Positions 5,316-53,046 of a DNA stretch of 64,000 nt are shown piece by piece; the stretch's first letter is position 1, and each line of letters opens with the position of its first letter. Location of the stretch: the NCBI GenBank assembly GCA_964572255.1, contig CAZNEE010000002.1, forward strand, positions 121,129 through 185,128. Reading direction: 5' to 3'. The notes under the pieces are model-generated. The model was not told the DNA's origin. It saw only the letters and a program-made list of their open reading frames with translations, and made no database searches. This DNA comes from an uncultured Planctomycetia bacterium. GTDB lineage: Bacteria > Omnitrophota > Gorgyraeia > Tantalellales > Tantalellaceae. Position numbers and translations under genes: made by a program.

Positions 5316-8300
5316 TTAAGCCGCTGCTCTGACTCCTAATTCCCTGTAAAATTCTTTCTTGAGGAGTTCTCTATCAATGGGCTCTGCTTTTGGCATGAAA
5401 GTAAATACCCTCGGGCTATCTTCATCAAACTCCAGCCCTATCTCGGGATAACTCTTCTTCAGTTCACTGATCAAGACTTCGAACGGTAAAACTTTATTAA
5501 AGGCAAGCTCTAAAGCCATGTTAATCATATCAACGATCCTTATGTAATTTTCTTCATTCCCATTCTCCGGCCGCTTATTGATCTGTTCAGGATCGATCCT
5601 CACCAAAAGCGCCCTGTCTCCCGTTTTAGGATCATGTAAAGGCTTGAACGCTTCTTCTTTTACTATATCCTCATGCCCTAAAACGATGATGTTCGAAAAG
5701 TTGACTTTTTTATTATCTGCTTCTTTCAGCAGCTGTCCGGCGAAATCATCCCCCTCTTTCCTGACAATATGGATATTTTTGATCCCGAGGCTTCCGGCGA
5801 TCCTGTATATCTCGCTTAAAAGCGGTTGTATTATATCGGCCTGTTCTTTTGGTATCCAGCTGGTCTCCAGCCCGATCATAATATTTTGTTCGTCATTTTT
5901 GACCCCCCCGCCAAGATCCCCATTTTTAACTTTATCGGCATAAAACCTGAGCATATCCATGAAAAGCATTGCCATCTCCTGAGCCCTGGTAAATTTGCCT
6001 TCTGTCCGCTTCCCTGCGGAAGGTTTATGTCTGATAAAATATAACGCGCTGTTATACACATGCTTGCTGTCCTTATAACTCGTTTCGACATCCATGATAT
6101 CGCCAGTGATCCCGCTCAATATTCTATATTTTCCGGCCGATCTGAGTATCTCGGCCACGGCGTCAATATCGCCCAGCTTTTCATCACGGGTTATGCACGG
6201 ATCATTCCATATCATCGCTATTCCATCATCATGGAGCATGACCGGCAATGCGCGGGCAAAGCGACTTAATGCGTCTCCCCCGATATCGCCGTCCCAATAG
6301 CTTGCAAGTTTTTTGTGCCAGGCGGGCACACTCTCTCCCGGCGAATCGATCAAGTTAGGCATGTTCCAGATGATCCTGTCGAAAACGCCGTCAAAAACAG
6401 GTTCTCCGTTTTCTGAAATTATATTATCATGGGTCACGGTCTCGATATCAAACCCGGCTATCTTAGCGGTCAGGCGAGTGTTTGCCGCTGCAAGCGGATT
6501 TATATCAACGGCATAGATCTTTCTGCCTGTTTTAAGATACGCTATCCAGCTGTCTATGCCCGAACCGGAACCCGCGATCAAGACCCTATGCCCCTTATCC
6601 AATCCTATATCATTCCACATAGCAGGGATTATCTTGGCATCAGAAACCGTCATTTCCGCCGGCGTATATACAGTGGGAAATACCGGGATAATGATCTTCT
6701 TTTTGCCTTCTTCTTCTTTAAAAATTCTTTCAAAATCCTGGTCGGATAATGTTTCCGGGGTAAAGGTCTGTATATCTATTTTTCCTGTCAGGGTATCAAC
6801 CCCGATATAATTATAGATATCTGTTTCCTGGCGGTTGAAATTTGAAATAAGCTGGCCTTGTCTTCTTCTCTCAGCGGCAAAAGAAAGCAGCAGCTTCTTG
6901 TCCGCATTCCTTCTTGTTATGAAATCTTTCCATTTCTGCGCGGCCTCAGGATCGGTCATATCGGGAAAAACAAAATTGTAAGGCGTAAGATCCAGATAAT
7001 AGATTTCATCCTGTGCGGGAGCGCCTTTGACAACAGGAAATATCCCTATTAAAAGACCCTGTTCATTATGTAAAAACTCGAATTCCCTTGTTTTCTCTCC
7101 GGCAAGTTCTCTATAAAGCACATCTAATCCGCGCGGAGTTCCGTACATCATAGATGTTTCGGGGATCCTTATCGTGCGAATGATGGTATTACTCCACCCT
7201 TGTCTTTCGGAAATTATACCGGCCTTATTGATCTCCAATGCCTGCAGGAACTCCCACGAAGCCATGTCTTTATAAAAAGCTGCGTCAGCCTCCTGCGCCT
7301 TGACCAATTTTGTTCCCGTTGCAACTGCTTCTTGTTTCTTGCCTGGAATGAAACGAACTTCAGATCTTATCTTTCCCTCGATATTGTCCAGTTCATCCAA
7401 AACATAATCACCAAAGATTTTTACTGCCTTTCCTTTTATGGGAACATCCGATACAACAAATGTACTGTCATCAAAAACTTTTATGAACTTATGAAAACGT
7501 TCTTTATTGTCAGTATCTTCGATATATACAGGAATTTTTTCCGCAGAATAAGCCTCTCCGACAACGGCTTCGAACGGTTTAAATCCCCTGTTTTTCCTTC
7601 TGAAATCAGGCCCTATATACTCATCTCCTTTCAGTTCAAAACCCAGATCTTCCACAACACTCACCAGGAAAGGATTCTGAACAAAAATGCCAAATTCTAT
7701 GTAGTAAGAACCGTTGTAAATAGCCCCCTGTTTCAGTCCGGACAACAGAACTTCCAGGAATGCCCGGGCGTACCCTCTATTCCTGTAAAGATTATCAACA
7801 AAAATACAATCGATTTCCGTGTCATTAAATCTGATATAACCAACAGGATCCCCATCCCCGCCGTAAAAATCCAGACTGCCATGATTCTCGGAAGACATGG
7901 GGAAATATTCGAAGAACAGTTTTTCATTATTGGGTGTAATAACATGCCCTGAGTAGCCTTCTTCTTCGAAAATGCTATTGCAGACTTCAGTTATTTCAAT
8001 AACCTCAGGATATTCCTCGGCAAAAGTCGCTGCTGTCAACCTTCTCTCTTTTAATGACCTCAAATAAGGCCCGACCATGATAGAACCAGTGTGATCGCCT
8101 TTCATCCAATAAGCGCCATCAATATAAGTAACAGGGGTATTATTCTCTAAAATAGCGACCCAATTATGCGTATAAGGCTTATCAAAGCCCCAATAATATC
8201 CTCCGACAACTTCCACTCGGCTGGGCGAATCCCCTCCCAATGGTAATCCATATTTCCTGGAAATGATCTCCGCCAGAGCTAAGGCGGAAATATAGCATTC

Positions 8301-11300
8301 TTTTACCGGGTATCCTTTTTTCACTTTTTGCCGCATAAGTTCCGTAAAACGATTTTCAATAGCTTTGAGATGCAAATACAAATTATCATCCGATGGCAGC
8401 ACTGAATGCGGATCTTGAACCTTGCCGTCACCGTAACCCGGAGGTCCGGGTTCGGATTTTAATTCGTTCTCTCCATCATACACCCTTATGCCCGAAGCCC
8501 AATCACTCTTATCGTACGGCCAAACTGTTACTTTCTTTCCTCCATGCCTAACTCCGATATAATATGGTTGCCCCATTAACGTTATGCTTCCATCTTTTCC
8601 GATCTTTCTTTCTGCAGGTATTGAGGGTTTTTTACGTACCACCTTTTTTCTCGGCTTTTTGACCATCTCATGCTTTTTACGTTTCTTTGTTCCTTTATTA
8701 TGGGAATTATAGCTCTCGATCAATCTTTCTACGGAATATTCTCCTGCAACTTCTTCCTCACTTTTTTCTTCCCCCTTCATCCTGTACCCAAGATGCGCGA
8801 CTTCATGGTTAAGCCATCTGGCATAAGAAACTAGATCATTTCTTCTGATCATTCCCAGAAATTCAAGAACTTTGCGCGGGATCAGCAGATTGCAGGAACG
8901 CGCAGCGCCATTTTCATCTCTCCAGGACCCGGGGTGAGTGATAAGTCTGAACGAACCTTTTTCCGGAAAAGAGATATTGCTTGTTTCTGCAAATTTATAA
9001 AGAACATCATAGAAATATTTCTCGGGGGGGCTATGTATATGGATCTCTTCTTCTATGCCCCTGCTTCTCATCTCGCTTAAGATATCTTGCCCTAATCCTT
9101 TTTCTGTTGAGATCTTATGATCTCTTTCAAATACATCCCAATAAACCCCCCATGTTTTATTGATAACGGCGTGCTGCTGGGCATTTAACACATACTGAAC
9201 CCATCTGCCGTCTTTTTTTACTAAAGCAATCGCGGGCGGATCATCGGAAGGAATGCCTTTTTTCTTATCCGATAACCTTGGCGATTCAGGCATTTTCCGT
9301 CCCCGGGAATAATTAAAACCTCTTCCATATCTGTCTCCGCTTCTTCTTTCTCCATCAATGTAAAACGTCAATTTCGGGCTGACTTCCTTGACTTTCACTG
9401 AGACAGCTTCACCTTCACTAAATCTTTTGCCTCCGCAAAGACTAAGGGGCATGAAACCTTTAACTTCTCCCTCATAAACAAGTTCATATCCCGCCAATGA
9501 ACCATCGCTCCTGCGGCGAGACTCTCTATTTACGAACACCTTAACTTCCTCTCCCGATCTCTCAGCTGCCTCCAATTCATACAATAGATCTCTTTTTCTT
9601 TCATTCGCCATCATCTGTCTTCGGCGAATAGAGAACCTGGGTTCGGGAATTATCCCCCTCCATTTACAATCGACGAGAACAACGTTCACTTTTCTGCCAA
9701 GCATATCATCAGGATTAGTTCCATAGGGGCATTCTCTCGAGCTAATGCGTCCTTTTATCTCCTTGAATTCAACCACGTAGTAGTCAAATTTGCCTCTATA
9801 ACTGTAATGATCTTCCACGATCTTGACCCTAAAAACTTTTTCAGGATCATCTTCCCCCTGCTTTATCTCTCTGATACCTAAATGATAATTAAAGACGGAT
9901 TTTGCTTTTTCGTCCAACTTGTCCAAAATAGCCTTTGATATTTTTTTATATTCATCTTCTTCTTTGCTGACCAAATAAGAAAACTCTGCGGGTTTTTCTA
10001 TTCTGCGCCTTGCATCAACAAACCTGTTCAAGTCCGCTTCTGCAATACAGTTTTCCGCTTTTCTTTTTGCTTTTGGCAAACCATGTTTTTTTAAATATAA
10101 AAAAGCCTCCAGGCTTGACAGCCTGCCTAAGCCGTCTATTTTCCCTTCAGCAGCCAACTTCATTCTTTCTTCGATCCTTTCATCTAAAAGGACTATTATC
10201 CTAATCTTTTCCCGGAAAAAAGCTTCCCTCTCTCCGAGCTTTAGGGCTTTCCATGCCCTATCGGAAAGTTTGAACTTATCACGTCTCCTGCTGTCGCTTT
10301 TCAGTAATTTACGTTCTTCCAAAAGGTCAATGACGTCTATAAGTTTGATCCGCTCATCATGAATCTTTTTCCTTACATGATCTCTCATTTCCCCTAAGAC
10401 ACGATCGGCTTCTTTCTTTGCATCTATTTCCGGCAATAATTCCGGGCGTTCATCCAAAACTTTATCGAGAAACACCGTAAAATGATCCGCCAGATCATCA
10501 TCACCCATGCTCCTAAGCTCTCCCAGGCGCCTGCGCATTTCATCAACCGCATAAGATGCTCTTTCAGGTTTCTCTTCACGTATAATCTCAAGGATATCAT
10601 TGAGCTCATCTCTCGTTCTTTCTCCCGAAGAATGAGTATCTTCACTTCCTTTATCCTTATCCGCGGGCTGGTCTGTGTGGGGCGTACCCGGGCCGAAACC
10701 GTCGGTCTTATCTTTATTGTACAAAACCTTAATGCTGAAATTTGGACTGCCCCCCTTTAAGGGGCCTGTCCTTCCGCTCAACATTATTTCTTTCACATCG
10801 GCGTTAAACTTTTCAGGAGCATCTCTCGGTATCCGCGGCTTGCCTCTTATTTCTATTAATACGTCTTCAACCGACTGAGCCACAACGCCGATTACCTTAT
10901 TCCCGATCTTAACGACCAGTTTTTCGTCTATTGTAATAACGGTGCCTTCCCTTAACTCTTTGACAAGCTCCAGTTCCTCTGTCCATTCATTACGTTCTAT
11001 CTTATATTTATTCTTTGTTCCTTCAACATGCTTTAAACGGAGATAAGCCAGCGGAAATACTGTTTCTATGTCTCTGATCTCGATCTCGCCCATCACATCA
11101 TAACTCCAGAAGCCTTCACCTGTCTTAGCGTCATTAATATCCTCGAAGCTTTGCCACTCCCGGCTTTTTTCGTAATTAAGAAGATCTCCGGAATAGAAAG
11201 TGACCTTTATTTCGTCAGCGAAATATTTTTTGAACACGTGTAGGTTATATAGCCAGGGTGTATCTATATAAATTTCATTGATCCCGTTTGTGACAGCAAA

Positions 11301-25881: not shown

Positions 25882-25904
25882 AGAAAAAAATATATCATGC
25901 TCAT

Positions 25905-26260
25905 CAAAGCAGATCTATAAGCCGGGTTCTGTAGGCGGAATTCACCGCCCGGCGATCATCCATCTGGGGCTTTCATTACTGAAAACCTCGTGCGGCCTAC
26001 CCGGAAGTTGTGACGAAGCTAGCCGCTTCGTTATCAGTCAATCCGCATGATTTTTCGGATTTTCCTGATTCCTCCCCTATTTGGCCTTGCTCCGCGTAGA
26101 GATTGCCGCGTTTCACTTCCGCATGCAAAAGCACGCTTACTCGTCTCTGTGGCTCTGATCCTCACCTTTTGGTGGACGGGCATTACCCGCTACGCTGCTA
26201 TATGGAGCCCGGACTTTCCTCCCCCTGCAAAAAGCAAAGAGCGATCACCCGATCTGCTTC
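25905..26260 (-). ncRNA. rnpB: RNase P RNA, bacterial type A
   Basis: The minus strand carries GGGGAGGAAAGUCCGGGCUCC (P4 5' strand), CGGAGCAAGGCCAAAUAGGGG and ACAGAACCCGGCUUAU (P4 3' strand). The P1 strands GAAGCAGAUC / GAUCUGCUU pair at the two ends. Confidence 0.85.
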
Positions 26261-27787: not shown

Positions 27788-27946
27788 AGCAGATTTTAAT
27801 CGTAAACTGTTCGCAAGAGCAGGACACAAAGCCAAAGGGGCTAAACAATGCTTTCAGCCAGCCGGCTGCCGATTGACACATCGTTAAAGTGTTGGCATAA
27901 GTATTGATCAGACCCAACCTTTCGATGGTTGGGTTTTTTGTTTTTT
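27788..27946 (+). promoter_or_regulatory. c-di-GMP-I (GEMM) riboswitch-like leader with intrinsic terminator, upstream of the first PEP-CTERM gene
   Basis: AAACUGUUC-GCAA-GAGCAGGACACAAAGCC...GGGGCUAAACAAUGC closely matches the Vibrio Vc2 aptamer (AAACCAUUC-GAAA-GAGUGGGACGCAAAGCC...GGCCUAAACCAUUGC). Followed by hairpin CCCAACC-UUUCGAU-GGUUGGG plus a U-tract. Confidence 0.7.
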
Positions 27947-28056
27947 ATAAGTAAAAAGTTTTTAAAAGGAGGTGATGAAAAATATTTCTTGCAAGTTTTT
28001 TTGCAGTTATATATAGGTAAGTTTTAAAAATCTAAGAAGAAAGTGAGGTGATAACG

Positions 28057-28659
28057 ATGAAGAAAATGTTGATCTTGATCTGTTTTGTATTAGCTATAGC
28101 GTTTATGGTAATACCATCGAAAGTTGAAGCTAGAACCATCGAAGATGATGAAGATATAGGCCCACCTCCTGGAACAGTACTCGAATATTGTGAGTGGTGG
28201 CCAAGTGAAACGGGTGACCCGGATTTTATAGATCTGAATTCTGGTGACAATTATTATGACCCTGAAACTGAAACTATCGTTTCAATGACAATCTCTGTTT
28301 GGGGAAGATCTAGCGATCAGCATGATGGTCAAGACAGCACAATTGAAGTATATATAGGCAGTACTGCTACTCCGGGGAGTCATTTGCAGCACGAGACCAT
28401 AACTCATGGCGATGAACTGGAGACAAAAACTATCACATTAAATGCTGCTGCTCTGGCCGATATCTCTGGAGACGGTAAAATAAACCTTAGATGGCACGGT
28501 CTTTCCGGAGGCGCAGGTGATCCTGACGGAGACACATTTGCTTTGGCTGGCTACCCTTCCTACGAAGCACATACCCCCGAACCGGCAACAATTATATCAC
28601 TACTTCTGGGCGGATTGGGAATGGCAGTAAAGAGGAAAAAGTTGTTCTTTAAGCAATAA
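28057..28659 (+). CDS. secreted PEP-CTERM sorting-signal protein
   Basis: GAGGTG sits 6 nt upstream of ATG at 28057. Signal peptide MKKMLILICFVLAIAFMVIPSKVEA, acidic mature region, and C-terminal TPEPATIISLLLGGLGMAVKRKK (PEP motif, hydrophobic helix, basic tail). Confidence 0.75.
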   Translation: MKKMLILICFVLAIAFMVIPSKVEARTIEDDEDIGPPPGTVLEYCEWWPSETGDPDFIDLNSGDNYYDPETETIVSMTISVWGRSSDQHDGQDSTIEVYIGSTATPGSHLQHETITHGDELETKTITLNAAALADISGDGKINLRWHGLSGGAGDPDGDTFALAGYPSYEAHTPEPATIISLLLGGLGMAVKRKKLFFKQ

Positions 28660-28707
28660 TTATATTTATTAAAAGAAATATTTAAAGGAAGGAGTTGTGA
28701 CAATAAA

Positions 28708-28741
28708 AAAGCGGCTTCCGATGGAAGCCGCTTTTTTATGT
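28708..28741. terminator. bidirectional intrinsic terminator hairpin (AAAAAGCGGCTTCC-GATG-GAAGCCGCTTTTTT)
   Basis: Perfect GC-rich stem flanked by an A-tract and a T-tract. Lies between the convergent PEP-CTERM gene and the small polylysine ORF. Confidence 0.7.
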
Positions 28742-28760: not shown

Positions 28761-28874
28761 TTACTTTTTCTTTCTCTTTTTCTTTGCAGCTTTTTTCTTT
28801 TTCTTTACAACTTTTTTCTTTTTCTTTGCTACTTTTTTCTTTGCAGCTTTTTTCTTTTTCTTCTTTACTACCAT
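28761..28874 (-). CDS. 37-aa polylysine micro-protein (MVVKKKKKKAAKKKVAKKKKKVVKKKKKAAKKKRKKK)
   Basis: Minus-strand ORF with strong RBS GAGGAGGGG 5 nt upstream of ATG. Built from a ~21-nt tandem nucleotide repeat and followed by the terminator at 28708-28741. Too short for the ORF track. Confidence 0.45.
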   Translation of the reverse strand: MVVKKKKKKAAKKKVAKKKKKVVKKKKKAAKKKRKKK

Positions 28875-29272
28875 TATCCCCTCCTCTTTTTGTTTAAAAA
28901 CTTTTTTTTATTTTTCTCTTCGAAAATCTTTTCTTGTAAAAAATATACATTATTATTTTTATTTTGCAAGTCTATGAAAAACTTTTTTTGCTCTGTATTA
29001 AAAAAATTTTTCGCTTTGAGAATATTTTTTCGGGAAAATATCATTCACTTTCGGCGTGAAAGATGAAAAATAATACACACGCTATACCTCTTTAAAATAA
29101 GGGGCTGTAGCGCTATGGATTTTTCTTCTTTTTTATTTTACTTTTCAACCTTGGAGATGTTGGGTGAGTTTGATCAAAAATATTTTATAAAAAATTTTCA
29201 AAATGAAAAAAAATTCAATATTTTTGCTTTTTAAAAAAAATAAATAAAAATATTTTTAGGATTTATTTGCGC

Positions 29273-29710
29273 TCAGGTGAAGTGGATCAGGTTGCACTTT
29301 GATGCTTCATCTTTTTTTCTTGAGACATCTATGCCCTTGACCTCGGTGATCAAGACCTCGACCGTGAGAAAAACTTTCCCTCCCTTTCTTAAACATCCGG
29401 TCAGAGAACTGTCTCCCCTGCCATACGAGGAATGAAGGTGAACCGACGGTGAGCCTTCCTGTTTTATGATGGTTCCGAATCCTATTATCTCTCTGCCGTC
29501 ATCGAAAGAAACAAAGTGCGGATCAGGAGGGATTTCTGCTTTCTCGGGGCCGGTAACTATATCGCCTTTTTCAAGCGCGCCTAAAATGAGGATCGTTGCG
29601 GCCGGAAGATCTTCTTTTTCAGCAATTTTTTTGATCTCGCTCAGCAGATCCTCGCCATGATCAAACCTTGCAAAGTAAACCCTGCCTATCGAACCTTTAG
29701 CATATTCCAT
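29273..29710 (-). CDS. PPC-domain (DUF296) DNA-binding protein
   Basis: 145 aa with the DUF296/PCC pattern RVYFARFDHGEDLLSEI...ILGALEKGDIVTGP. Confidence 0.6.
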   Translation of the reverse strand: MEYAKGSIGRVYFARFDHGEDLLSEIKKIAEKEDLPAATILILGALEKGDIVTGPEKAEIPPDPHFVSFDDGREIIGFGTIIKQEGSPSVHLHSSYGRGDSSLTGCLRKGGKVFLTVEVLITEVKGIDVSRKKDEASKCNLIHFT

Positions 29711-29734: not shown

Positions 29735-30949
29735 TCACATGTATCTTTCCGGAGTTCTTTTCACTTCTTTGAAGACAGGAACGAACGCTTGCGGTTTTCT
29801 CCCGAAACATACCCCCATCTGTTCGTGAAGCGCGACCTGATCCAGGTCCACATGTCTTTGTTCAATAGCTTTTTCCGAAGGCATATATTTTACATCTTTT
29901 CCGGAAACGCCGACTATAGTCACGCCTTTAATGCCGTTCTTAAGCAGTACCACAGCGCCGGCTCCTGCTTCTTTACCGAAATTCACGTCATATGCCGAAC
30001 TTCGGCCGCATCTTACCAGATGGCCGGGAACCACACTGCGCACTTCCGGTATCTCATACATTTCTTTTACATACATGTGTGTCTTATGCATAAATTCATC
30101 GATCACCGGGTCGGCTTTCATTCTCTTCGTTATCTCCTGGCAAACATATTTCCCCGCTCCCGCGAGTTTTTTATGCCCGAACGCATCAACGCCCGCGCTC
30201 TCATCCACTATTTCACTGCCGCTGGCGTCTTTCAACCCTTCAGCGACCATTACCAGATAAGTGCCGGCATGAACATCGCTTGATGTGATCCTGTGCGTCA
30301 GCCTTTCTTTTACATGATCATACAGAATATCAAAATCGACAGGTATCTCCGGGATCAATATCGCATCGACGTCGCCCGCTATGCCGCCGCGCAGCGCGGT
30401 ATGCCCCGCATATCTTCCGAAGACTTCCAGCACGATAACCCTGTTATGCGTTTTTCCGGTAGTCTTGAGTTCGTCCGCAAAAACAGCGATCCTGTTTATG
30501 GTCGAATCTCCGCCGACCGAGTATGTCTGAAGATCGAGATCCATCGTCTTGGGAACATGCACACAGGAAATCCCGTTCTTAAAAAGATCCACCATAACGC
30601 TGCCGGTATCATCCCCCCCGCTGATGACAAGCGCATCTATTTTGAATTTTTCAAGCCCCTTTTTGATACGTTCATATTTTTGCTCATCTTTGATCTTCCT
30701 GATCTTAACGCGGGAGTGACCCGCTTCGGACCCCGCCGGATTCGCATTGATGGCATCCTGCCTGTCAAGCGTCAATTCCGTCAGTTCGTCAAAATCAATA
30801 AGATTATAAAGGCCGGCGTATCCGTTCGGAATGACGAAACATTTTATTCCCATATTGTTCGCCATCTCGGCAGCGCCCTTCACAACCGCGTTAAGGCCGC
30901 CGCAATCACCGCCGCTTGTAATTACCCCGATTTTCTTGATATCTGGCAT
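29735..30949 (-). CDS. pfk: 6-phosphofructokinase (probably pyrophosphate-dependent: GGDD motif)
   Basis: GVITSGGDCGGLNAVV and VISGGDDTGS. Asp in place of the Gly of GGDG is the PPi-PFK hallmark. Confidence 0.75.
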   Translation of the reverse strand: MPDIKKIGVITSGGDCGGLNAVVKGAAEMANNMGIKCFVIPNGYAGLYNLIDFDELTELTLDRQDAINANPAGSEAGHSRVKIRKIKDEQKYERIKKGLEKFKIDALVISGGDDTGSVMVDLFKNGISCVHVPKTMDLDLQTYSVGGDSTINRIAVFADELKTTGKTHNRVIVLEVFGRYAGHTALRGGIAGDVDAILIPEIPVDFDILYDHVKERLTHRITSSDVHAGTYLVMVAEGLKDASGSEIVDESAGVDAFGHKKLAGAGKYVCQEITKRMKADPVIDEFMHKTHMYVKEMYEIPEVRSVVPGHLVRCGRSSAYDVNFGKEAGAGAVVLLKNGIKGVTIVGVSGKDVKYMPSEKAIEQRHVDLDQVALHEQMGVCFGRKPQAFVPVFKEVKRTPERYM

Positions 30950-35652: not shown

Positions 35653-37308
35653 TTATTCAAGAAAATTCATCTCCAAGAAATTCTTGAGCTGCCTTGCCCT
35701 TATAGGATGCCTTAATTTCTTCAGAGCCTTGGCCTCTATCTGGCGCACTCTTTCTCTCGTAACATTAAATATCTTGCCCACCTCTTCGAGGGTCCTGGGG
35801 TAGCCGTCCCCTATACCGAACCTGAGTATGAGAACTCTTCTTTCGCGTTCGGTAAGAGTCGAAAGCACGCCTTCCATCTGTTCTTTAAGCATCGCATACG
35901 CCGTTGCGTTCGCGGGTGAGACAGCTGATTTATCTTCGATGAAATCCCCGAAACTCGTATCGCCTTCATCTCCTATCGGTGTTTCAAGAGAAATAGGATG
36001 CTGGGCTATCTTTATGATCTCTTTTACTTTAACGACAGGGATCTTCATCTCTTTAGCGATCTCTTCCGGGGTGGGTTCTCTCCCCCGTTCCTGTACAAGC
36101 TTGCGTGAACCTCTTACAAGTTTATTGATCGTTTCGGTCATGTGTACCGGGATCCGTATCGTTCTCGACTGGTCAGCTATGGATCGTGTTATGGCCTGTC
36201 TGATCCACCATGTCGCGTATGTACTGAATTTGTATCCTCTTTCATATTCAAACTTGTCCACCGCCTTCATGAGCCCCATGTTCCCTTCCTGAATAAGATC
36301 AAGAAAAGACAACCCCCTGTTTGTATATTTTTTGGCAATACTTACGACAAGCCTGAGATTGGCGGCAACAAGTTCTTTTTTGGCTTTTGTATAATCTCTT
36401 TCAATAAGTTTAACAGCTTCCAGGTCTTCCAATATCCTGCCCGGCGACTGGCCTATTTTTCTCGCGAGTTTGCGCAGAAGATTCTGGTTCTCTTTGAGCT
36501 CTTTCTTAGCCCTTCCCTTCTGAAGCCTTATAATGCGGTTATTTGCCCTTCTTACTTCCTCCATCTCTTCCATTATCTCATCAGCCACTTTCTCAACAAG
36601 GACTATAGCGACTTTTAGTTTGCCCATAAGCGGCTTGACCGTACTTTCTTTTTTTGAAAGTTTGACCCTTTTTATGAGCGCTTCTTTTCGCTCTTTCAAT
36701 CTTTCCACATTCGCGCTCGGATCGACATCAAGAACTTCATCCAGGTTGTAATCATTATCTATTGCATCTTCTATAGCTTCAAGGATTTTCTCGCGGGCAA
36801 GTTTTATGCCGAAAACTATCTCTTTAAAGTCCTTTTCCTTATCCTTGATCCTCTTTGCAAGTTCCAGTTCTTCATTCCTGCTTAAAAGCGGGATCTGCCC
36901 CATCTGTTTTAAGTACATTTTCACGGGGTCATCTATCTGCACGAAACTGCGGGTCTTTACCTTTTTTCCGCCCCTTTTTACCACAAGAGGTATTTTCTCG
37001 AGTTCCTCTTCGGATTCAACGACCTTTATATCCGCGGAATGCAGCATGGTTATGACTTCATCTATTTCATCCGCGGAAGCCACTTCTTCAGGAAGAACAT
37101 CATTAACATCATCATAGCTCAAATAACCTTTGTCCTTGCCGGCTTTTATCAGCTTCCGGACAATGGCCGATCTGCTTTTTTCCCCTTTCCGGATATCTTC
37201 AACAGGAATGATCGCTTCGGGTTCTTTTTTCTTCCTGGGAGCTCTCTTGGCGGTTTTCTTTTTAACTTTCTTTATTTTCTTCGGCTTTTTTGTTTTCTTC
37301 TTCGCCAT
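35653..37308 (-). CDS. rpoD: RNA polymerase sigma factor RpoD (sigma-70)
   Basis: [37 protein letters not shown] and a region 4 HTH. Lysine-rich N-terminus. Confidence 0.9.
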
Positions 37309-37310
37309 AT

Positions 37311-39068
37311 TTACGCCACCCTCTCCTTGTGTATTTTATTTATCTTCGAAAGCAGGTCTTTTATTTTTATACCATTATTGGATCTCTGTGCTTCTTTTAA
37401 CCTGAAAGTAAGATCTTTGAGCTTGGCGTCCCTATTCTCTTTTTTTAAACTCAATATGCAGTCTGCCAGCATTTTTTCTTTATTGCTGTTCTCTATATCG
37501 ACTTTTTCAACGGCAGCTACTACTGTTCGCTTCGCGTTCTCATCATTTTCCAATCTGCTCAACAACTTGCCGGGGCTGATCTCATCCAGCTTTTTGAACA
37601 TCTCTCCTGCCGCCATCATGGCTTTTTTTACATTTTCATCGTGGAACAGGTCAAGCCCCACCTCGCTCTTTATTTTGTTGTACATTTTCTTATCAAGTAT
37701 TGCCAGCCCCAGAAGATACGACTCGCTGGAGTTTAAATTATTATTTTTAGGCATGCCGGCTTTAGATGTATCTTCATGATGATAGGAGTAACCCGGCTTC
37801 ACTTTTTTAACCTCAATACGCAGGGATTGTTCGTGCACTCCCAGACGTTCCGCCATCTTCTTTAGATATGAAGACTGGACCACAAGATTGCTGATGCGGG
37901 ATATTGTGGGAAGCATCTCATCGGCTATACGCCCGATATCTCCCATGCCGTATTTTTCAACTAAAAGATCCAGTTTGTAATCAAAAAGGTCCTTAGCCTG
38001 CTCTAGTGCGCCCTCAAAAGCTTCTTTTCCTTTTTTCCTGACAAAGCTATCGGGGTCATCACCTTTCGGCAGGGCAGCTATCCTTACCCTCATTCCTTTT
38101 TCTATGAGAACGTCCAGCCCTCTCAGACTCGCGGCTTCACCCGCCTGATCAGCATCAAAGACCATTACCGCGGTATCGGTATACTTTTTCAGCATAGCGA
38201 CCTGGGCTGGAGTAAGCGCGGTTCCTGAAGCCGCCACAACGTTCGTGACACCATGCTGGGAAGGGATGATCACATCCAGATATCCTTCCGCGATGATCAC
38301 ATATCCCTTTTCTCTGGCAAACTTCCGGCTAAAATTCAAGCCGTAAAGAATATTGCTTTTGTTATAAATTACGGTTTCGGGAGAATTGATATATTTTGGA
38401 AGAGAGTCATCCATTACCCTCGCGCCGAACCCCACGATATGATCCCTTTCATTGAATATCGGGAACGTTATGCGGTTTCTGAACCTGTCGTAATCTCCCT
38501 TCCCTTTCTCGCTGGGTATCGCCAGCCCCGCTTTCCGCAATAAGTCAGCCGGGATCTTTTTTGAAGTGCAATATTCCCGCAGTGATTCCCACTCATCCAA
38601 AGCATAACCTATCCTGAATTTTGAAATGCTGGATGAATCTAATCCCCGTTTTTTTAAATACTCCAAAGCCCTTCTTCCCTTTTCGCTATGCAGATTGTTC
38701 TGGAAGAAAGAAGCGGCTATTTTGTTCACTTCATAAAGCTGTCCGGCCAATGATACGGTCTCTTTTGACCTTTTTTCATAAACAGGCAGTTCCACCCCCG
38801 CTTTAGCTGCAAGCATTTTCACCGATTCAGGGAAATCCATGTTTTCATATTTCATTACGAACCCGATAGCGTTACCGCCTGCGCCGCATCCGAAACAATG
38901 GAAGATCTGTTTATCGGGACTGACCACGAAAGAAGGGGTTTTCTCGTTATGGAACGGACAGCATGCCTTAAAATTCCTGCCGGTCTTTTTAAGAGGCACA
39001 AAGCCCGAGATAACCTCCACTATATCGACCCTATCAAGTATCCTGTCTATTATTTCCTGCGGTATCAT
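37311..39068 (-). CDS. dnaG: DNA primase
   Basis: Zinc ribbon [11 protein letters not shown]...CFGCGAGGN and a Toprim domain. Confidence 0.9.
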
Positions 39069-52268: not shown

Positions 52269-52862
52269 TTAACTTGTAAACTTTTTTACTGCCGTTCCTA
52301 ATAAAGCAAGGCCTAACATCACCATGCTTGCGGGTTCCGGAGATCCATAAATACCTCGTGCGGCACCTCCCTCGTCACTAATTGCTGCCGCTCCGACCCC
52401 GAAATAATAGGGCGAACTGCCCGCTTCCGGTACGACAAATGTATCGAACCCTTCTTGTTTTCCGACCAAGCTCACAACATCAGAATCAACCAATGTTAAT
52501 GTGCTATCCATCAATACAAAAACAACTGCATCGCCGAACTGTTCGTTATTCGAGTACCATTTGTAATTGATTACATCCCCTACTGAAAAAGAGGTAGGTG
52601 CAACATTGAACACCCCTTCATTAACAGTGGTAATTTTAAATATCGCCATATGTTCCGTATGATCAGCTTCATCTGAATCTTCAGGTGACTTTTCAACAGA
52701 TACACTTGGTCCGTTAGGTGCCCAATTTGTCATGTCGCGCATTTCTAAAAGAATATTACTCAATCCGAGCTCCCACATATTATATGTCGCAGCTTCAGCA
52801 CAAATTGTTAACGCAAATAATAGTGCAATAAACAATATAAAAGCTAAACAACATTTCTTCAT
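52269..52862 (-). CDS. secreted PEP-CTERM sorting-signal protein, paralog 2
   Basis: Same RBS/start context as the 28057 gene (GAGGTG 6 nt upstream of ATG). Signal peptide MKKCCLAFILFIALLFALTICAEA. C-terminal SPEPASMVMLGLALLGTAVKK. Confidence 0.75.
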   Translation of the reverse strand: MKKCCLAFILFIALLFALTICAEAATYNMWELGLSNILLEMRDMTNWAPNGPSVSVEKSPEDSDEADHTEHMAIFKITTVNEGVFNVAPTSFSVGDVINYKWYSNNEQFGDAVVFVLMDSTLTLVDSDVVSLVGKQEGFDTFVVPEAGSSPYYFGVGAAAISDEGGAARGIYGSPEPASMVMLGLALLGTAVKKFTS

Positions 52863-52892
52863 CATTCTCACCTCACTTTCTTTTTAGATTTT

Positions 52893-53046
52893 AAAAAACA
52901 AAAACCCAACCATCGAAAGGTTGGGTTACTGATTTTCTCCAACACTTTAACGATGTGTTAATCGGCAGCCGGCTGGCTAATTTCTTTCCTAGCCCCTTTG
53001 GCTTTGTTGCCCCGTTCTTCCGAACGGTTTACGATTAAAATCTGTC
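52893..53046 (-). promoter_or_regulatory. c-di-GMP-I (GEMM) riboswitch-like leader with intrinsic terminator, copy 2
   Basis: Minus strand: AAACCGUUC-GGAA-GAACGGGGCAACAAAGCC...GGGGCUA..., then ACCCAACCUUUCGAUGGUUGGGUUUUUGUUUUUU. The P2 stem shows compensatory changes relative to copy 1. Confidence 0.7.

Follow-up and report, generated by a model that had tools for sequence, protein, structure and literature searches.

The window, i.e. the whole 64,000-nucleotide stretch analyzed here, carries on its minus strand a polylysine micro-gene that we call polyK. The coding sequence spans positions 28761-28874(-) and encodes the 37-residue peptide MVVKKKKKKAAKKKVAKKKKKVVKKKKKAAKKKRKKK, exactly as claimed in the initial annotation for both the ORF and its translation. 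Its assignment is based on the translation, the repeat, the orthologues and the codon and A-run statistics described below. Of its 37 residues, 25 are Lys, 1 is Arg and none is acidic. The Lys content is therefore 68% (K+R 70%) and not the 73% first given. Tandem Repeats Finder identified a repeat with a period of 21 nt within the CDS (3.4 copies, 90% matches, positions 28771-28842, score 116), in agreement with the ~21-nt periodicity noticed earlier. One repeat unit corresponds to 7 amino acids, KKKKKAA/VV. The lysine repeat is the sole domain of polyK and the net charge is about +26 over 37 residues. Neither proline, nor a signal peptide, nor a hydrophobic face is present in the window peptide. 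AlphaFold2, run on the single sequence, predicts one helix from residue 2 to residue 36 with a pLDDT of 96. We did not retain this helix as proof of a fold, because Lys/Ala low-complexity sequences are routinely modelled as helices. At most, the prediction is compatible with helix formation on binding a polyanion.

Upstream of the CDS, the promoter CTTGCAAAA-N12-ATGTATATT is located at positions 28942-28970(-). The -35 hexamer TTGCAA (28969-28964) and the -10 hexamer TATATT (28947-28942) are separated by a spacer of 16 nt, and the predicted promoter is near consensus. A consensus scan and the alignment of orthologous upstream regions choose one and the same site. An A-tract (CAAAAAAAG, 28982-28990(-)) precedes the -35 hexamer by ~12-20 nt. 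Nearly all of the 23 orthologous upstream regions have an A-rich block, (g/a)aaaaaaa, aligned with it, and this block may correspond to an UP-like element. From the position of the -10 hexamer, transcription would start near 28935, giving an A-rich 5'UTR of ~60 nt (28875-28935(-)). Within this region, a semi-conserved TTTTAAAC(A/G)AA stretch precedes the Shine-Dalgarno (SD) sequence GAGGAGGGG (28878-28886(-)). The duplex of the SD sequence with the anti-SD is calculated at -12.4 kcal/mol. It ranks first among the 49 genes of the window, for which the median is -4.1, and the strong ribosome binding site claimed earlier is thus confirmed. The 5-nt distance to the ATG given with it is correct for the GGAGG core but not for the whole purine run GAGGAGGGG, which ends 3 nt before the ATG.

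Downstream of the CDS, an intrinsic terminator of sequence A6-GCGGCTTCC-ATC-GGAAGCCGC-T6 is predicted at positions 28705-28737. Its GC stem (28731-28723/28719-28711) has A6 and T6 on either side. The fold has an energy of -25.3 kcal/mol (z = -6.9 as compared to shuffled sequences), in line with the GC-rich terminator hairpin initially attributed to the gene. A simple consensus terminator scan missed this hairpin, which was revealed by folding. A convergent PEP-CTERM gene, 28048-28659(+), ends 46 nt from the terminator. Because of this proximity and of the symmetric A and T tracts, the terminator, which the two genes share, is considered as bidirectional.

Two other ORFs at the locus were rejected. 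Metagenome gene callers propose a 56-aa ORF at 28874-29044(-). This ORF is spurious, as it covers the conserved promoter and the 5'UTR and is not conserved. The plus-strand poly-F/S ORF over the repeat had been described as having no ribosome binding site. This is not strictly right, since a GTG at 28697 has AAGGAAGGAG 2 nt upstream. It was discarded as a gene because its phase and its start differ between orthologues. The gene callers also annotate a 39-aa ORF at 29115-29234(+), in the 400-nt spacer upstream of polyK.

The minus-strand neighbours of polyK are a PCC/DUF296 protein (PCC, 29273-29710), a phosphofructokinase (PFK, 29735-30949) and a UDP-glucose dehydrogenase. Downstream of polyK are found tRNA-Met(CAT), tRNA-Val(CAC), a CT398-like zinc-ribbon protein, RNase HI and RNase P RNA. 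In orthologous loci, the order is PFK-(PCC)-polyK-tRNA-Met-tRNA-Val-CT398-RNase H, which is the ancestral arrangement. In the window, the PEP-CTERM gene with its c-di-GMP-I riboswitch sits between polyK and the tRNAs. This gene is a lineage-specific insertion between polyK and tRNA-Met. The riboswitch (27791-27873(+)) is located upstream of 28048-28659(+), and a second c-di-GMP-I riboswitch (52961-53043(-)) is located upstream of 52269-52871(-). They score 58.7 and 48.3 bits, respectively. Both riboswitch-linked proteins are ~200 aa long and have a PEP-CTERM-type C-terminus. This C-terminal anchor is all that they share. The RNase P RNA is of class A (25902-26260(-), 216.6 bits). Its gene immediately follows that of RNase HI and is part of the conserved block tRNA-Met-tRNA-Val-CT398-RNase H. 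A local inversion is indicated in two orthologous loci, where the tRNA-Met that follows polyK lies on the other strand (L020, 13327-13404(-); L026, 13091-13168(-)).

The exact window peptide is encoded on 9 metagenome contigs. Five fetched contigs (L001-L005) are identical to the window over 624 nt, and we therefore assign them to the same population. Orthologues were searched for by scanning Lys-rich small ORFs in the 80 closest PFK loci of species-representative genomes. These loci belong nearly all to Candidatus Omnitrophota, with 68-82% identity. Complete polyK orthologues were found in 22 genomes, all on the PFK strand and downstream of PFK/PCC. Four further loci (L016, L017, L025 and L027) have the same promoter, the same SD and a MVVKKK or MAVKKK start, and their contigs end inside the repeat. 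Hence, short-read assemblies break there, and true polyK lengths may exceed the 115 aa of the complete genes. The window itself is assigned to Candidatus Omnitrophota. With the window and these 26 species-level genomes, polyK is conserved at the syntenic position in at least 27 Omnitrophota genomes.

All orthologues follow the same plan, with an M-V/A-V start, a body made of (KKKVA)n or (KKKKKVA)n and a KKKK(K) end. The repeat period is 15 nt in most orthologues, versus 21 nt in the window. Complete orthologues are 21 to 115 aa long. The idea that the number of repeats could vary and change the length of the protein is thus verified, also by a 27-nt in-frame indel that distinguishes the polyK genes of L008 and L013, two contigs that are ~93% identical. 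These contigs carry the same locus, with polyK genes of 23 and 32 aa, and are both part of MAG JBDRBI01. This bin probably mixes two related populations.

The expression signals are conserved as well. The 140 nt upstream of all 23 complete genes contain a strongly conserved promoter block, CTTGCAAAT-N12/13-(T)AATGTATATTT, and a preceding A-tract. The motif TTGCAA-N13-[AG][TG]GTAT[AT][CGT]T is present upstream of 23/23 complete polyK genes, including that of the window. In 1.29 Mb of fetched Omnitrophota DNA, the only other matches are in L001-L005 and in front of the four truncated polyK genes. In the window, the motif has a single match at up to 3 mismatches. A GGAGG, GGGGG or GGGAGG sequence precedes the ATG by 5-9 nt in all orthologues. 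A hairpin followed by a U-tract is found 3-35 nt after the stop in 22/22 orthologues with enough 3' sequence (-15.6 to -25.7 kcal/mol). The stem sequences differ between orthologues, showing that the structure and not the sequence of the terminator is conserved. In compact loci, a TTGAAA/TATAAT-type promoter lies between the polyK terminator and tRNA-Met. Since each orthologue with enough 3' sequence ends in a terminator and tRNA-Met has a separate promoter, polyK is monocistronic by its architecture and forms a self-contained, independently transcribed unit. As judged from signals typical of strong expression, polyK is probably highly expressed.

Two loci, L009 and L048, have the PCC-tRNA-tRNA-CT398 arrangement without polyK at the site. 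In these genomes, the gene is therefore either dispensable or located elsewhere. In L024, L029 and L030, an ORF of ~110-120 aa is found after PCC in place of polyK. These three ORFs share motifs such as 'RRAFKRV...GG(V/I)YF' and look PilZ-like by eye.

In DNA made of A and G only, composition by itself leaves all three sense frames open, and an open frame alone proves nothing. Codon differences were counted in close orthologue pairs of equal length. Synonymous changes outnumber non-synonymous ones in L032/L041 (5 vs 0), L012/L013 (8 vs 2) and L026/L084 (13 vs 4). The longest A-run is only 5-8 nt in 23/23 genes. When the Lys codons of each gene are permuted within that gene, the mean becomes 7-11.5 nt (Fisher combined P = 6e-12). 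AAG accounts for 52% of the Lys codons in polyK genes, whereas long ORFs of the same loci use it for 38% of theirs. Ribosomes slide on iterated AAA codons and less protein is produced (PMC4363877). Broken A-runs are therefore expected if a polylysine gene is translated and under selection, although they would equally be favoured by avoidance of homopolymer mutation. polyK thus shows the general features of protein-coding genes, i.e. a conserved start context and frame and more synonymous than non-synonymous change. Together with the in-frame indel between L008 and L013 and with the lack of conserved antisense ORFs, these data indicate that polyK is translated and that its coding frame is under selection. 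It is established as a genuine small gene above all by its promoter, SD, ATG, stop and terminator, which are conserved in the 26 other genomes, up to the contig end in the four truncated cases.

A search for similar repeat micro-proteins, suggested in the initial annotation, was successful. DNA encoding (KKKVA)3KKK is present on at least 120 metagenome contigs, as mini-proteins or as tails. Among the matches listed, 41 are complete stand-alone Lys-rich ORFs of 29-157 aa, beginning with MAKKK or MAVKKK. The matches listed also include KKKVA C-terminal tails on two proteins acting on nucleic acids, ribosomal protein S2 (RpsB; L134, L137, L145) and topoisomerase I (L202), and on adenylate kinase (L157, L183), all of other organisms, as well as KKKVA repeats within ~300-aa proteins beginning with MPAKKAASKKRKK. 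Both the Omnitrophota promoter and the PFK synteny are found in 2/120 contigs among the matches listed (L105, L186). In contrast to polyK, the other KKKVA contigs of this set correspond to unrelated contexts, to tails on RpsB, Adk or TopA, or to the ~300-aa proteins. In L200, a 30-aa polylysine ORF immediately adjoins a 113-aa basic protein. The metagenomic KKKVA repeats may be related by descent or may have converged. As a 'histone H1-like' module, KKKVA is thus widespread in bacteria, and the kind is already known.

The polyK peptides are absent from the protein databases searched. In a family-alignment protein search, none of 8000 word-sharing candidates had E <= 1, because composition correction strips the scores of low-complexity sequences. 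An exact look-up of 10 orthologous peptides in a collection of 15 billion proteins found none of them. With the Pfam HC2 profile (PF07382, gathering threshold 40 bits), the best score is 20.1 bits (E = 7e-4) for the 115-aa orthologue, followed by 15.4 bits for a 72-aa orthologue. The window peptide has no HC2 match in the Pfam search. With NCBIfam NF038053 (hist_H1_lk_Burk, cut-off 80 bits), the best score is 10.1 bits (E = 0.71). The matches to both profiles are sub-threshold and appear driven by composition, and homology to Hc2 cannot be claimed from them. On the other hand, the features by which Hc2 is described, consecutive Lys-rich pentamers with A/V/T/P and length polymorphism via the number of repeats, are found in polyK. 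In the Omnitrophota literature searched, nothing specific on lysine-rich, histone or nucleoid proteins was found.

Several known polycations resemble polyK. Chlamydial Hc2 (HctB) and Bordetella BpH1 are composed of Lys-rich pentamers with A/V/T/P and their length varies by repeat number (PMC2848022). Hc2 binds DNA and RNA, condenses the nucleoid and represses translation (PMC2848022). Like polyK, Hc2 and BpH1 have tandem Lys-rich pentamers, gain or lose repeats without loss of frame and have no recognisable globular DNA-binding fold. Moreover, Hc2 is found in Chlamydiae, which belong to the PVC group according to NCBI taxonomy, as do Omnitrophota. However, Hc2 is 165-237 aa long, has 2 basic residues per pentamer, and contains 36-aa super-repeats and a non-repetitive C-terminal part. 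In contrast, polyK is 21-115 aa long, has Lys at 3/5 or 5/7 residues and consists of the repeat only. DNA is also bound by the KPAA-repeat peptides of Pseudomonas AlgP, a protein associated with polyphosphate granules (PMC9239181). The C-terminal KPAA-repeat domain of AlgP/PhaF binds DNA and has been likened to the H1 tail (PMC9239181). Like polyK, it is a polycationic module made of a Lys/Ala repeat. Its repeats are a mutational hot spot and it is under-detected by trypsin-based proteomics (PMC9239181). AlgP differs from polyK by its N-terminal helical domain, its KPAA repeat (25% Lys, Pro-rich) and its defined role in the spacing of polyphosphate granules, whereas the polyK of the window has no Pro and no second domain. 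The C-terminal tail of the eukaryotic linker histone H1 and protamine-like proteins are charge-neutralising and condensing and, like polyK, they are extremely basic low-complexity polypeptides. They differ from polyK in that H1 also carries a winged-helix globular domain and protamines are rich in Arg. By analogy, polyK is best read as a minimal, repeat-only, fast-evolving and more densely charged variant of the Hc2/BpH1/AlgP/H1-tail type, outside the definitions of these families.

We consider it fairly probable, from its composition and from these analogies, that polyK is an independently transcribed, repeat-only polycation that binds polyanions, chiefly DNA, by electrostatic and sequence-independent contacts. 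With no other domain, no acidic residue, no signal peptide and a charge of ~+26, electrostatic binding of polyanions is the only plausible activity. A peptide of formula M-V/A-V-(K3-5 V/A A/V)n-K4-5, translated from its own transcript, would bind DNA chiefly, but also RNA or polyphosphate, without sequence preference. It would neutralise charge and condense or bridge polyanions, in the same way as Hc2, BpH1, AlgP and the H1 tail do through their Lys-rich sequences. Between lineages, its length would change quickly when the 15-nt or 21-nt repeat undergoes replication slippage or recombination, with selection retaining frame, charge density and expression signals. Nucleic-acid binding and condensation are the most likely outcome suggested by composition and analogy. 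Among the three roles proposed in the initial annotation, an H1-like tail or a nucleic-acid- or polyanion-binding peptide fits best, on the same grounds, and the ribosome-stalling leader is not retained (see below). That its length varies so freely, between 21 and more than 115 aa, fits a generic polyanion binder for which no precise structure is needed. This range gives no handle on the true cellular target, whether DNA, RNA/ribosome or polyphosphate. Omnitrophota cells are mostly ~0.2 um in size and their genomes measure 0.9-3.2 Mb (PMC10066038). DNA has to be tightly packed in such cells, which would benefit from a condensing polycation. More tentatively, polyK could be a principal and very abundant counter-ion of chromatin or polyanions in nano-sized Omnitrophota, i.e. 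a protamine-like condenser produced on ribosomes, with a length rapidly tuned by repeat slippage; we view this broader proposal as doubtful. If true, the synthesis of polyK would show high-rate translation of ~70%-lysine peptides by means of spaced AAG codons that avoid poly(A) sliding.

Very small polybasic ribosomal proteins are known, such as eL41, bS22 and Thx. polyK might likewise be a ribosome- or RNA-associated micro-protein, having rRNA, tRNA or RNase P RNA and not the chromosome as its main partner. We consider this unlikely, while giving it some weight. Its promoter and SD are as strong as expected of genes of the translation apparatus, metagenomic ribosomal protein S2 carries KKKVA tails, and Hc2 itself binds RNA and represses translation (PMC2848022). 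tRNA-Met, tRNA-Val, RNase HI and RNase P RNA also form a conserved block with the gene, but this synteny is adjacency only, as the terminator and a separate promoter intervene. Furthermore, a stoichiometric ribosomal component is unlikely to differ so much in length among related species (21 to more than 115 aa) or to be missing from its site, as observed in L009 and L048.

A regulatory leader peptide, i.e. a lysine-sensing, ribosome-stalling ORF attenuating a downstream gene, is very improbable. The many consecutive Lys codons and the hairpin a few tens of nt past the stop would suit such a role, and an alternative helix could form in the window between CGCTTTT (28760-28754) and AAAAGCG (28735-28729). 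However, no such alternative helix or anti-terminator is conserved among the orthologues, in which the terminators are strong, with symmetric A and T tracts. The idea fails because nothing downstream of polyK is co-transcribed: the next gene in the window is convergent and, in compact loci, a tRNA with its own promoter lies beyond the terminator. Moreover, a leader peptide would not be expected to reach 115 aa or to be under selection over its whole length.

We find it highly unlikely, too, that the ORF is incidental and that the functional element is an A-rich (ARN)n transcript, for instance an Hfq-type sponge, or A-tract DNA, for instance curved DNA. AAA and AAG are indeed ARN motifs, and the openness of all sense frames by composition would agree with a non-coding element. 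On the contrary, every orthologue has a spaced SD, an ATG, an M-V/A-V start and a stop directly after the last Lys run, and the Val and Ala codons change synonymously. Since the repeat period is 15 nt in most orthologues and 21 nt in the window, neither DNA phasing nor RNA structure is conserved; DNA curvature was rejected for this reason.

Lys-rich peptides of 25-35 residues are membrane-active or antimicrobial. As Omnitrophota have been proposed to be predators or parasites (PMC10066038), polyK could be a cationic antimicrobial or predatory peptide that these putatively predatory or parasitic nanobacteria export against their hosts, but this has very little likelihood, because polyK has no signal peptide or hydrophobic face, no transporter, immunity or processing gene adjoins it in the window, and such a charge would bind the nucleic acids of the producer itself.

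With polyK, Omnitrophota, a phylum known from metagenomes alone, gain a conserved micro-gene whose expression is probably high and whose peptides are absent from the large protein collection searched. With 21-37 residues and ~60-70% Lys, its short forms would be near the minimal conceivable nucleoid or polyanion binder. They could provide a simple synthetic model for condensation of the H1-tail or Hc2 type, and may bear on how genomes of 1-3 Mb fit into cells of ~0.2 um. The gene also illustrates, in a natural setting, how selection acts against poly(A) tracks when a coding sequence is rich in lysine codons. On the practical side, the repeat breaks short-read assemblies, trypsin-based proteomics will miss the peptide and gene callers put a spurious ORF over the promoter.

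Lys-rich stretches are also encoded elsewhere in the window. One, at 8628-8687, belongs to a giant ORF of 3767 aa, 5316-16619(-); Omnitrophota are reported to encode very long proteins. Another, at 37261-37320(-), corresponds to the Lys-rich N-terminus of an RpoD-type sigma factor (gene at 35653-37308).
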